Assembly: GCA_964016885.1 (NCBI GenBank)
Contig: OZ024740.1
Coordinates: forward strand, 271,188,001 to 271,252,000
DNA length: 64,000 nucleotides
Direction of reading: 5' to 3'
DNA from: Eledone cirrhosa
Lineage: Eukaryota
In this document: positions 4,381-62,098 of the stretch, one piece after another
How the letters are laid out: each line of letters begins with the position of its first letter
Position numbering within the stretch: the stretch's first letter is position 1
Notes under the pieces: model-generated
The model's database searches: none
Told to the model about the DNA's origin: nothing
Seen by the model: only the letters and a program-made list of their open reading frames with translations
Translations under genes and position numbers: made by a program

Positions 4381-4442
4381 TTCTATTATATATATTTCAA
4401 GGGTACCAAAATTTAATTTTGGTACGCTATCATCAGATAAAA
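4381..4442 (-). ncRNA. Type I hammerhead ribozyme motif
   Basis: ttttat CTGATGA t AG c GTACCAAAAT..ATTTTGGTAC c CT t GAAA tatata T A atagaa, with overlapping AATAAA. Confidence 0.8.
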
Positions 4443-5640
4443 TACGAAGTGTGTTTTATAACTCTTGACATAACCAAGGAGAATATACCTTAACGGTTCA
4501 AGCTATCCTTGGAAAGTGAAGGGAAAAAAGAAGAAAAGTCAAATATTTCAAATTATTAAGATGAGTATGGAAATGAGGTTTAAGTAAAAGGGCTGAAAAA
4601 ACGTTATTTTAGACGCTATGGAAAATTTAATTAATTATGTATTATTATATATTAATATCATTGTATATTATACTTCAGAAAAAAACTGTTGAGTGCTCTG
4701 AATCAGTTATAAACATTTATATTTGTTGAATTACCAACAAATTGAATATCCCTTCTGCTTATATATATATATATATATATATATATATATATATATATAT
4801 ATATATATATATATATATATGTACATACATACATAAATACATACATACATAAATACATACATATATACATACATACGTACTTACATACATTTAAGCATGT
4901 TTCGATATTGACCTATCTTTCAAGCAGTCTTTAAAATGCTTTAAAACATACATACATACATAAAAATTCTGCATTTAATAACTGCATGTACACATGTACA
5001 GATAAAATGCACATGCACATATACATCTCAAAACATCCACATCCACACATACAATAACATCCATACCTGCACACACATGTATGCATATCTATCTAGTTGG
5101 TGTTGTGTAAATTCCAATGTTGTATCTATGTTAGAAACCGACTCTTTCTCTATTGGCAAACATTTGTGAAAGTATAAAACCAGATGAACATACATACATA
5201 TAGATTCTACATCTAATAACTGCATGTACACGTGTACAGATATAGACCATATGTACATGTACACATATAACTTAAAACATATACATCCACACATACAATA
5301 GCACCCATACCTGCACACACATGCATGCTTGCAGACATGCATATATATCTACCTAGCTAATGTTATTTAAATTCCAATGTGAGAGTCTTGTGTCTATGTT
5401 AGAAACCGACTCTCTCTCTCTCTCTATTGGTAAAAATTTATAAAATTATAAAGCCAGAACATATATACATACATATGCTATGTACTCGACCGAATGGAAG
5501 ATATCTTCCCAAGAGAGATTAAACATCAATTCGAATGTGACAAATCTAAATACTGTATACATTTTTCTCTGATATTCTACCCGCTCAAACATATCTACCG
5601 TGCGAAATTTATAGTATATGTTTATGTTTTTACCTATCTA

Positions 5641-5828
5641 CAAGGGTCGGATGAAAAGTTTATAAGCCGATCAAGATATTTTCATGGAATGACAAAATAA
5701 GGTTTATTTTTCAACATAGAAAGAAACAATGCAGTTATTAATAAGAGTTGAAATTAATGCCAGTAAGATTTCACAGCACTAGCATCAAACCTTCATAGTC
5801 AACCTATGAACTTTTCAGCCGACCCTCG
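5641..5828. mobile_element. Mariner-type MITE (copies about 11751-11925, 12800-12996, 26020-26210, 51636-51823)
   Basis: About 30-bp TIRs CGAGGGTCGGCTGAAAAGTTCATAGG with TA TSD. Confidence 0.8.
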
Positions 5829-6340
5829 TACTATCAATGCTTTGCTAAATATATATATAAACAGGTTGTTTCCAATTCACTGTGTAAATTTCCCATTTCC
5901 TAAATCTCTCTATTTTCTTTTAGAAAAACCAATACACATACGCTTTTAAAAAATGCAAATAGAAATCATTATGCATTTTACATTCATAACGCCATTTTAT
6001 TTAATTCTTTGAACATTGCTATGAATTAAAAAGAATGGAAAAGATTTTTTTACTTAAGATACTATACGGTTTATGGTCCATATATTGATCAGTATTTTTT
6101 TATTATCGCAAGTGAAAAAAATCATTTAAAATATGAAAGAAAAACATTTTGGCAAAGAATTCTTTCTGTAGCTATTTATAGCACAGATATTAAGGAAACT
6201 TGATCAGTAGATGATAACATACTGGCTGGTCGAACATAAACCATAACTATTACTGACTGAAAATACTATTGATTAAAAATGAATAATAAAATAGTATTGT
6301 AATATATATTATATATGCATATTTCCTTAATATTATTCAG

Positions 6341-6455
6341 CTGGTTGCATTTATGGTGGCAAGTTTTACAAAGAAGGCGAAAACTGGAGAGACGGCTGCA
6401 AATATTTTTGTGAATGTGCAGATGGAAAGAGAGGAATCTATATTTGCAAAGAAAG
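6341..6455 (+). CDS. Exon b: first half of VWC module AGCIYGGKFYKEGENWRDGCKYFCECADGKRGIYICKER
   Basis: ttcag| acceptor and AG|gtaaat donor. 115 nt, phase 1 to 2. C..G..Y..GE.W..GC...C.C VWC signature. Absent from the ORF track. Confidence 0.93.
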
Positions 6456-6574
6456 GTAAATTATATATATGTGAATAATTATTCTTACAGTTACTTGCTT
6501 TTCCTCGTGTCTCTAGCTTACAGTTTCTAAATATCTGACTTACATTAACTACCTGACCATTTTAAATCAAAAGT

Positions 6575-6850
6575 CTGTCTCGAGCCCGGAGGTTCATCGG
6601 GCAGATGTCTATCCCACTTTCCGTGACATGAAACGACTGAGAGTATATGACCCACCCCTGGACAGGACGCCAGTCCATCACATGGTTAAACTCCCAGCTA
6701 TTGCTGGTACTCGTTCTCAGCAGAGTATACTGGAGCAACGTGAAATGAAGTATTTTATTCAAGAACACAACACGCAATCCAGTCCAGGATTCGAACCTAC
6801 GATATTATGACCATAAGTTCAACACTCTTACCACTTGGTCATTCACCTTC
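6575..6850 (-). mobile_element. tRNA-derived SINE with CORE-like and V-domain-like segments (copies 7600-7875, 24730-24940)
   Basis: Minus strand: GGTTCGAATCC B box, CTTGA..AA.ACTTCATTTCACGTTGCTCCAG, then GATGGACTGGCGTCCTGTCCAGGGG. Confidence 0.75.
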
Positions 6851-59268: not shown

Positions 59269-59304
59269 TCTTCTGATGAAGGACTAGCGTCCGAAACGTT
59301 AAGA
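59269..59304 (+). ncRNA. 36-nt minimal type I hammerhead
   Basis: tctt CTGATGA a GGAC-tagc-GTCC GAAA cg T T aaga. Palindromic stem III ACGT. Confidence 0.82.
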
Positions 59305-59788
59305 CCCTCTTCCAGCTATTTCAAGCGTTAACCTAATATATACCTTCCATATACTGTACCGATTGTATTGTTATTTCTGTTTACCTTTTACATACATACA
59401 TATATATATATATATATATATATATATATATATATATATATATATATATATATATATATATATATATATATATATATATATATATATATATATACTATAA
59501 ATTATGTCCATAGAATCATTTGATAAGATATATACTCCATTTCCTCTCCCAATTAGCATAATCAACCACACAAAAAACCAATTAAACTAGGCTATAAGAT
59601 TAAAATGCACCTATGAAGAAATAATTGATAAATAAACGACAGCCATCTATTCGCGATCAACCGCTATAGAATATTTACCCAGCATTTCAATAGCACGTGG
59701 AAATCGATTAAATATATCGTCAACCATACACAATTAGGTATAAAATTAAAGATAGAAGAAAAAATGCATATACACATACCAAGATTAC

Positions 59789-59870
59789 GTTTCTACCCTT
59801 CAGGGTTTCATTCGCTTTCGGAAATATCCGATCAAGGATAAATTCTCGAGCTTCGAAATCATCAGGAAAC
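59789..59870 (-). ncRNA. Type I hammerhead ribozyme motif in pseudo-LTR 59500-60058
   Basis: gtttc CTGATGA t TTCG...CGAA t GAAA CCC-tgaa-GGG T A gaaac. Confidence 0.8.
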
Positions 59871-60942
59871 AAACTCACTTGGACAAAGATTTTTCTTAAA
59901 CGATCCCCGCCAGAAACGAATTTAAAATGGCTAAGAACTGTGACGTGGCAGTGGTCAAGTCAGAAAGAATGTGATTGGTGCCTTACGGCTAGTGGGCTGG
60001 TTGCTAGAAAGCGCAGCCTAATATTGCCTAAATTGCATCTCAACCTTACGGGAGATTATATATATATATATATATATGTGTGTGTGTGTGTGTGTGTGTG
60101 TGTGTGTGTGTGTGTGTGTGTGTGTGTGTGTGTGTGTGTGTGTGTGTGTGTGTGTGTGTGTGTGTGTGTGTGTGTGTGTGTGTGTGTGTGTGTGTGTGTG
60201 TGTGTGTGTGCGTGTGCGTGTGCGTGCGTTTGTGTGTGTGTAGAGAGAGAGAGAAGTACATATAGAGATATGTGTTCAATCATAGAGGATCAATAACCAC
60301 CAGAGTGACGAACATAATGTCTATGAAAGGAAAGGTGACTACAAATCAATTAAAAGAATAAACTAAAGTGTACTAATAACTGTTTCTACTTTTAGCACAA
60401 GGCCAGCAATTACCAGTGTATTACTGGTACTTTATTTTATCGACCCCGTAAGGATAAAAGGCAAAGTTAACCTCGGCGGGATTTGAACTCAGATCATAAA
60501 GGGAGGTAACTCTATGCTTCAAAGCATGGCGCCCGACCCTCTACCGCTAACAACAACAGCCGGACATGCTCAAATTAGAGTATGTTTCGCCACAACAAGA
60601 GACGATATGTTCATCACACTGGCAGATATTGATCCCTTATGATTGAGCACATATCTCTATGTGTACTTCTCTCTATATGCTGATTTATAAAGAGCCCGGA
60701 ATCTATTCCTTGAGCTCATTAAATTATGGGGGATTAATGAATCTTTAATTCCTTTTTTTTAATTTGATGTATATATATATATATATTATACACACACACA
60801 CACACACACACACACACATATATATATATATATATATATATATATTATACACACACACACACACACACACACACACACACACACACACACACACACACAC
60901 ACACACACACACATATATATATATATATATATATATATATAT

Positions 60943-61362
60943 AACGAAGGAAGTGTGGTAAGGAACCAGGCGGACCATAACGCACCAGAGTACTCAATAC
61001 TTAGGGTAGTAAAGTGAGTATTAGGAAAATATTCAAGACCCCGACGGCAGAGCTCAATGTGTTTCGACGGCTATTTCTGGACAGTCCAGAAATAGCCGTC
61101 GAAACGGCTTGAGCTCTGCCGTCGGGGTCTTGAACATATTCCTATATATATATATATATAAATATATATAACGAAGGAAATGTGGTAAGGAACCAGGTGG
61201 ACCATAACGCACCAAAGTACTCAATACTTAGGGCAGTAGAGTGGGTAATAGGAGCGAGTAGGACCCCGACGGCTGAGCTCAAGCCGTTTCGACGGCTAAT
61301 TCTGGACTGAATTAGCCGTCGAAACGGCTTGAGCTCAGCCGTCGGGGTCCTACTCGTTCCTA
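60943..61362. mobile_element. Two tandem short palindromic pseudo-LTR-tail elements (family also at 10635-10758, 15241-15356, 40520-40660, 41371-41570)
   Basis: Shared terminus AACGAAGGAA..TGTGGTAAGGAACCAG..GGACCATAACGCACC next to (TA)n. Near-perfect palindromes 61022-61143 and 61248-61362. Confidence 0.75.
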
Positions 61363-62021
61363 TAAATATATATATATATATATATATATATATATATATA
61401 TATATATATATATATATATATATTCACGTGACATTCAACAACCAACCAAATCTTAATACCTCTGGGGCCACTTTTTTCACATAAAACGGGAAGAATTTCC
61501 TAAACTGATCAGATTAGAGCAAACATCACGAGCGCTCTATCTCAAAATTATTTTTGAAAAGCATTAGAAATGCACAACCGGTAAAAACTTAAAACTAAAA
61601 CTGAATACTAACCAATACTTATTACTAATTTATACTTATTTCTAATTAAACTATTTTTCACTGGGAAAAATTTGTCAGCATTTTCTTTTCCTTTTACTAA
61701 TATATCACAACTCGTGTGTTACACCTCTATTTTTTTAAATATATCTATATATATATATAAGAGAGAGTGTTAAACTTTGCTTGAAGCATTTGTGGAATAT
61801 GAAAAATAGACGTTTTGGAAGCCTCAACAATGCAGATGTGTAAATCTACATTCTTTTACGCCCTCTACATCTCTTTCTACGTTTCCTCTTACATCTCCCT
61901 CTCTTAATACCACCTGAGGCTTCGAAAACGACTATTATATATATAAAACGAAAAATCAGTGATGCATCTGGACTCAGTTTATTGTGTTCTTCGGACACAT
62001 GCAATACTGGAAAGTATTGCA

Positions 62022-62098
62022 TGTGTCTGAAGAACCTGCAACAGATCCATAAAATGATCATGTCTCGAGCTATCTGCCGGCGAAACAATTGTAACACA
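62022..62098 (+). ncRNA. Type I hammerhead motif (relative of the 41759 family, canonical CTGAAGA)
   Basis: tgtgt CTGAAGA a CC t GCA...TGC c GG c GAAA caattg T A acaca, then AATAAA. Confidence 0.75.

Follow-up and report, generated by a model that had tools for sequence, protein, structure and literature searches.

An unpaired pyrimidine at the fourth pair of stem II in hammerhead ribozymes of Hydra-clade Penelope-like elements from Eledone cirrhosa

A stretch of 64,000 nt from the genome of Eledone cirrhosa (contig OZ024740.1, positions 271,188,001–271,252,000; hereafter the window, in whose coordinates all window features are given) contains type I hammerhead ribozymes in which the fourth pair of stem II (bases 10.4 and 11.4) is replaced by a C·C or U·C mismatch. 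An earlier note, made from the sequence of this stretch, had pointed out eight such sites and had taken them for unrelated ribozymes that share a general feature of long stems II, presumed to be a tertiary-contact or protein-binding site that stands in for the usual loop 1–loop 2 interaction. The question raised by this locus is whether the mismatch is a general property of long-stem hammerheads or an inherited trait of particular elements, and what might maintain it. Here we report that about 100,000 hammerhead copies in this genome keep an unpaired pyrimidine at the fourth pair of stem II, and that they belong to Hydra-clade Penelope-like elements (PLEs).

The fourth pair of stem II in the window and in the genome

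All eight hammerhead sites were recovered in a descriptor scan, with the same position-4 pairs as noted earlier. They represent five families, because 37981/38197 and 41719/41763 (hammerheads are named here after their core positions) are inverted pairs, each derived from one insertion, and 62027 belongs to the 41719/41763 family. The type I core CUGANGA...GAAA...UH, with three stems and an open stem I, is complete in 4436, 17806, 23058, 37981 and 62027.

The 4436 hammerhead (4379–4444, minus strand) has C10.4·C11.4 at 4426/4402, an intact core, a 6-nt palindromic stem III and a predicted cut after position 4387; its family has 1,320 exact pattern matches genome-wide. In 17806 (17734–17811, minus strand) the C·C mismatch lies at 17796/17754, and 2,251 genome-wide pattern matches belong to this family. 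Among the matches listed, one 17806 subfamily combines A·A at position 3 with C·C at position 4 into a 2 × 2 loop at many independent loci, and in another U·C replaces C·C. The 23058 copy (23053–23108, plus strand; C·C at 23068/23088) has A rather than U at position 1.7. The 37981 family, with 5,424 genome-wide pattern matches, is represented by 37928–37985 (minus strand; C·C at 37971/37947) and by the inverted second copy 38197 (38193–38250, plus strand; C·C at 38207/38231). The latter is decayed, with G17 and a stem I broken by a mismatch; the arms of the inverted insertion span 37873–38041 and 38137–38305.

The U·C family comprises 41719 (41636–41723, minus strand; U·C at 41709/41655; a stem II region of 61 nt), its inverted second copy 41763 (41759–41846, plus strand; U·C at 41773/41827) and 62027 (62022–62098, plus strand; U·C at 62037/62078), which has a canonical core and an internally shortened stem II. 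Copies 41719 and 41763 have a U4C core. It should be mentioned that U4C cores (CCGA; also at loci L136 and L142) are the family state in a young family represented in the window by 18118 (minus strand), being found in 9 of 11 copies; they are common in the U·C family too (41719, minus; 41763, plus), and CTGA copies may result from CpG decay. At gathering score the Rfam hammerhead models gave no match in the window, and the combination of a long stem II with a tiny stem III likely falls outside these models.

To place these sites in the 3.0-Gb, microsatellite-rich host genome, we sampled 140 stretches of 10 kb at fixed intervals (1.4 Mb) and chose matches on the core, stem I and stem III only, blind to the pairing of stem II. 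In total 112 hammerhead matches were found, as against one in the reversed sequence; 70 of them had a stem II region of at least 18 nt, and reduction to a single one for each locus and family left 58. Of these 58 long stems, 37 had a mismatch at position 4, while positions 2, 3, 5 and 6 were mismatched in 17 of 232 cases (Fisher p = 4e-19, with shared descent ignored), so that the register of the mismatch is non-random in the larger set as well. The 37 mismatches were C·C (26), C·U (8), C·A (2) and G·A (1). They were concentrated in hammerheads with a T...A 6-nt palindrome (30 of 32), the remaining long stems contributing 7 of 26. The description of these stems as otherwise paired fails at position 1, which was mismatched in 26 of the 58 and G-C in only 7; stem II is symmetric.

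Genome-wide patterns for the main class, restricted to an intact core and a stem II region of 14–44 nt, gave 76,654 matches with C·C at position 4 (9 with the reversed control pattern) and 29,119 with C·U or C·A (control 34). Paired versions were rare, with 589 matches for C-G (control 13) and 685 for G-C (control 14), that is about 1%, the level expected from copy decay; a base other than C at 10.4 was found in 9,000 matches (control 265). Among the matches listed, the paired and non-C variants are mostly scattered mutations, deletions, mis-registered matches or members of a separate short-stem family, and the 200 paired variants listed contained no expanded family with a restored position-4 pair.

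The base that is held constant is not the one proposed earlier. The C of the 3′ strand had been thought invariant, whereas 11.4 is U or A in the 29,119 matches mentioned above. Hand-written rules assigned 248 of 278 distinct hammerhead matches to 37 groups, in a set that includes loci found with the paired-variant patterns and in which C-G is therefore over-represented. Of the 32 long-stem groups, 18 had a pyrimidine on the 5′ strand facing C, U or A (three of the 18 rest on one locus); ten others were Watson-Crick paired, one had G·U, and the remaining three were mixed or had purine mismatches. In the short-stem groups position 4 was paired in all five, as C-G in four. Across the family groups it is thus the 5′ C (sometimes U) that is constant, while the 3′ base varies, and the motif can be given as C (or U) at 10.4 with a partner other than G, followed by a mostly purine-pyrimidine pair at position 5. 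Other position-4 mismatches, A·C and G·A, were seen as single copies in L313 and L121 (minus strand), in two families outside the main clade whose relatives have G·U or U-A. A long stem I was rejected as the cause of the mismatch, which occurs in families with a stem I of 4–5 bp and can be missing in those with 7–10 bp.

Host elements, descent and selection

The mismatch hammerheads are dimer-type type I hammerheads of Hydra-clade PLEs. Their stem III is short and formed by 6-nt palindromes, and where there is an open reading frame (ORF) the hammerhead lies in sense, 0.5–3.5 kb past the GIY-YIG endonuclease (EN) at the C-terminus. Such EN-linked loci are L030, L077, L079, L091, L093, L126, L162, L273 and L320–L322. 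The 4436 family forms the 3′ end of an autonomous Hydra-clade family, its hammerhead lying in sense 1.1 kb past the EN in L030, and the 23058 copy has stems I and III as in the EN-linked L321 family. The intact ORF of L077 (820 aa) contains RWK-like and DKT motifs, a CxCX5C linker, CxxC and CxH flanking E and N, and the C-terminal EN, with no CCHH motif; linker and EN motifs are also present in the window ORFs. By the definition of Craig et al. (2021; PMC8557442, as far as consulted), Hydra-clade PLEs are marked by the RWK-like, DKT, CxCX5C and CxxC/CxH motifs; since they matched, an origin from Naiad or Neptune elements was dropped.

In the 17806 and 37981 families no ORF was found in the copies examined. 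Longer copies of the former are ORF-less tandem units of about 1.3 kb (L317:1–4151), and a match to reverse transcriptase (RT) or EN is absent from its long copies L317 and L318; the long copy L315 of the latter is an ORF-less unit of about 2.4 kb (L315:219–2651). Such units, in tandem or inverted, end in hammerheads. No ORF link was found for the U·C (41719) family or for L316, L319, L323 and L324.

The descent of the mismatch was traced on a tree of RT/EN sequences with 36 rows, made up only of copies from this genome and their metagenomic relatives. Left out were 61 of 75 metagenomic rows and, for being short, redundant or on long branches, twelve further rows from this genome; nine of the tree rows fill under half of the columns. 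For L115, L325, L321, L121 and L088 the hammerhead was read from another copy of the same family; the L114 ORF was kept unassigned, its hammerheads being a separate small inverted insertion. Ten of the 12 traced mismatch lineages fall in one PLE clade (support 98/96) and the other two in an unresolved fork. Holding all mismatch rows together with L065, a lineage with a paired position 4, was not rejected by the approximately unbiased (AU) test (p = 0.142), and holding them together without L065 was rejected (p = 0.0008); one gain and one loss therefore suffice. A second origin of the mismatch is possible. The hammerheads are thus for the most part related, contrary to the earlier note. The major PLE lineages have only about 35–55% of their amino acids in common.

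On this tree the 5′ base at position 4 (10.4) did not change once in the 12 mismatch lineages, while those at positions 1, 2, 3, 5, 6 and 7 changed 4, 4, 3, 4, 4 and 1 times; the 3′ base at position 4 changed twice, never to G. The flanking pairs differ between families, as had been noted, through compensatory change on both sides of position 4, and the position-3 pair is G-C, A-U or U-A across the mismatch lineages. At the flanking positions 19 G·U and two A·C were counted, so that the sense RNA is the folding strand and folding of the DNA or antisense strand is ruled out. Since the flanking pairs changed repeatedly and in a compensatory manner and C10.4 stayed the same, the register of the mismatch is likely kept by selection, with a modest signal at the level of the tree. 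Its conservation, proposed earlier, is thus upheld by covarying flanks and by the scarcity of paired versions.

To our single-protein metagenome scan no relatives responded; an alignment-based metagenome search detected 77 loci of related elements, 56 of which hold a hammerhead (75 matches, one control match). In 26 distinct metagenomic relatives with a stem II region of at least 17 nt, position 4 was mismatched in two, which agrees with the 8 of 104 cases at neighboring positions. In published Hydra hammerheads, read by eye from the rows of File S2 of PMC8557442, position 4 is paired in 25 of 26, mostly as C-G. From both sets it follows that C10.4-G11.4 is likely ancestral and the mismatch lineage-specific. 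Outside this genome, the mismatch hammerhead fold was found at none of 35 viral pattern loci and in none of 80 among the prokaryotic matches listed.

Six further long-stem hammerheads of the window, not listed in the earlier note, also pair position 4 (cores 16294 on the plus strand and 18118, 38723, 39149, 39704 and 59865 on the minus strand). The pair is G-C at 16289–16379 (plus strand), C-G at 18075–18123, 38654–38726 and 59788–59871 (all minus strand), and A-U in the two hammerheads (39073–39154 and 39628–39709) of a tandem unit of about 550 bp at 39073–39709 (minus strand). The idea of a general long-stem feature is thus at odds with these six copies, with the ten Watson-Crick long-stem groups, with 24 of the 26 metagenomic relatives and with the published Hydra rows.

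The EN of one Hydra PLE copy in the window ends at 19915, and 18118 is the 3′ hammerhead of that copy; the same link is seen in L136. The corresponding region, 19915–21133 (minus strand), comes from a young Hydra-clade PLE and is a fragment with frameshifts that covers RT thumb, linker and GIY-YIG, with a GIY-YIG match below the cut-off (expect value 3.5e-4). Among 60,160 first-look candidates, this young family gave 150 scored EN matches at 93–100% identity, many of them in open frames of 830 aa, some longer.

Several other hammerhead families were found in this genome. Tandem retrozyme-like arrays consist of 310-bp units with canonical hammerheads or of units of about 530–555 bp with a long paired stem II (L037, L047, L055 and L188; window 39073–39709). 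A Hydra-type PLE family has the hammerhead-like core CAGAAGA (U4A) in 19 of 24 copies (cores 4167, plus, and 1059 and 23564, minus; L062 and L094); its stem II has 3 bp following U·U, and its stem III, which is not a palindrome, could fold as a monomer. A short-stem family (L079, minus; L091, plus; L214, minus) combines a stem II of 4 bp with a GAAA tetraloop and a U1.7 that is unpaired, and is a natural match to the minimal U1.7-GNRA design of engineered hammerheads. In addition, an abundant dispersed short repeat with about 20 window copies (e.g., 42640–42697) is presumably a tRNA-derived short interspersed nuclear element.

Possible functions of the mismatch

We tentatively prefer the explanation that the inherited 1 × 1 mismatch at 10.4/11.4 is selectively kept as a hinge or docking pocket for the packing of stem I. 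The ancestor would have had C10.4-G11.4, as do the published Hydra hammerheads and the short-stem families found here; one lineage would have lost G11.4 while stem II lengthened, and copies with a restored pair would not found new families. With their palindromic stem III the ribozymes would act as dimers in tandem transcripts. At the junction of stems I and II the mismatch would make the helix looser, with A1.6 and U1.7 as candidate partners (the least-supported step), and in the active fold stem I could then come to lie against the elongated stem II.

The location is suggested by known hammerheads, in which U1.7 pairs with the last base (A) of loop 2, just 5′ of 11.4 (O'Rourke et al., as reported in PMC11875169), and by CChMVd(-), the chrysanthemum chlorotic mottle viroid minus strand, in which an internal loop of the long helix II serves as loop 2 (PMC2632901; both sources as far as consulted). 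By this comparison the mismatch sits where stems I and II meet. A1.6 is found in all 32 main-class copies of the sample and U1.7 in 31 of them. A stronger proposal, which we regard as doubtful, is that of a new natural contact between stems I and II, in which the mismatch would dock the A1.6-U1.7 strand (or the RT) and make the ribozyme fast at cellular magnesium without loop 2.

A number of observations weigh against a selected hinge or docking site. The paired lineage L065 is nested inside the mismatch clade, and the absence of changes at 10.4, against a mean of 3.3, is about a 1-in-25 event, so the tree signal is modest. Many long-stem families that lack the mismatch, the young 18118 family included, have spread well. 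U1.7 is present in 13 of 18 mismatch groups and also in 7 of 14 other long-stem groups, a link that is weak across families and confounded by the AATAAA signal and by predicted stem I pairs, with which U1.7 often overlaps; it is missing in 23058 and in most 41719-type copies. Nor do these hammerheads have the unpaired 3′ A of loop 2 by which the canonical loop 1–loop 2 contact is defined: 11.5 is U or C and takes part in a pair in 30 of the 32 main-class copies, and the mismatch lies inside the canonical 4-bp stem, not beyond it. No conserved distal G able to pair with C10.4 was seen when the family flanks were inspected by eye.

It is rather unlikely, although several features would agree with it, that the mismatch is a recognition mark for the RT/EN of the element or for a host RNA-binding factor, used in 3′-end capture or chaperoned folding. 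The mismatch is confined to part of one element clade, its 5′ C is fixed while the partner varies, and it is retained by ORF-less derivatives, which need a protein in trans; moreover, PLE hammerheads cut poorly in vitro and helper factors have been proposed for them (PMC4209133, in the parts consulted). Yet such a mark would have persisted while the proteins diverged to about 35–55% identity, and any base-specific reading would have to be loose, since propagation is seen with C·C, C·U, C·A and U·C alike.

We also consider it unlikely that the mismatch acts as a damper on the ribozyme, the three pairs next to the core being weakened so that it cuts only once a dimer or chaperone is present and some full-length RNA survives. 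The computed cost of the mismatch is 4.6–6.7 kcal/mol in the 12 lineages, predicted pairing at position 2 falls below 0.55 in 7 of 12, as compared with at least 0.85 when position 4 is paired, and position 1 is often mismatched too. In G-C-rich lineages, however, the proximal pairs remain at 0.83–1.0 despite the mismatch, and a stem could be weakened at any position and with any bases, yet here both the register and the pyrimidine identity are fixed.

A neutral accident in one ancestor, passively inherited, would account for the single origin that the AU test did not reject, for the loss inside the clade and for the paired long stems that work in sister lineages and outgroups. We hold it to be improbable: an unconstrained unpaired site should outpace its neighbors, whereas the neighbors were turned over by double changes and 10.4 changed least, and no restored-pair family has expanded among the listed variants. 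Least probable by far is a switch in which the free 3′ pyrimidine permits an inactive fold, the 3′ strand of stem II pairing with the CUGAUGA core (G8 with 11.4), as in the minimum-energy fold of the 23058 copy and with similarly complementary strands in 17806 and 37981, for on inspection the 4436, GGAC and U·C families show little complementarity and the C·A variants lack it.

A one-base change at position 4 could tell tertiary docking from damping and from recognition by a protein. That a position outside the core has stayed unpaired in lineages with only about 35–55% protein identity is direct sequence evidence of selection on the fine structure beyond the core of these ribozymes, and the design of aptamer-fused ribozymes would also profit from a long stem II in which a defined mismatch is tolerated or required.

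Comparison with known hammerheads

The statements of this section refer to the portions of each source that were consulted. In the literature searched, including PMC6155905 and PMC6765202, the mismatch was not described, in agreement with the earlier note; this is provisional, as the likeliest survey, Lünse et al. (2017), lay outside the search. Palindromic stem III and U10.1·U11.1 have been documented in hammerheads (PMC3088659).

Canonical hammerheads (Schistosoma, tobacco ringspot virus satellite RNA and CChMVd; PMC2632901, PMC11875169) have the same core, and U1.7 is common in them. For their tertiary contact they depend on a looped stem I and on a 3′ A left unpaired in loop 2, beyond a stem of 4 bp, whereas the hammerheads described here have a 1 × 1 pyrimidine mismatch at the fourth pair and no such A.

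Minimal PLE hammerheads (Cervera and De la Peña, 2014; PMC4209133) share with them the type I fold, the link to PLEs, a long helix II, a dimer-type helix III and the dispersed truncated and inverted copies. The minimal consensus has an extra unpaired base after A9 and G10.1-C11.1, neither of which is found here. These hammerheads were described as lacking tertiary contacts and as poor cleavers, and may or may not be active or under selection at all. In Figure S3 of that paper, examined by eye, two of 56 examples have a 1 × 1 mismatch, both at position 4 and without comment (U·U in Clonorchis 2 and C·A in Strongylocentrotus 1). This hints, if weakly, that a mismatch may be tolerated or favored there more widely.

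Non-LTR (long terminal repeat) retrozymes (PMC7229834; bioRxiv 10.64898/2026.07.22.740005) likewise are ORF-less tandem units with type I hammerheads and a proposed PLE origin. Their described units are about 300–400 bp long, and those of the two window families measure 1.3 and 2.4 kb and carry the long mismatched stem.

The closest counterparts are the hammerheads of published Hydra-clade PLEs (PMC8557442). Common to both are RWR in place of RWK, DKT, the CxCX5C linker, CxxC/CxH around E and N and the C-terminal GIY-YIG domain, as well as a sense hammerhead near the 3′ end with a palindromic stem III, a frequent C at 10.4 and a symmetric stem II that often opens with U·U or G·U. The one unpaired position 4 among the published examples belongs to a 3-bp stem, while here a subclade has a fixed 1 × 1 mismatch in a longer stem, 6-nt palindromes, 3′ untranslated regions of 1–3.5 kb and ORF-less derivatives of 1.3–2.4 kb. 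Being lineage-restricted, the feature is not a general new rule for hammerheads; it is a real structural variant, specific to a lineage, of a ribozyme and within an element clade that are both known; it occurs in very high copy number and is probably selected.

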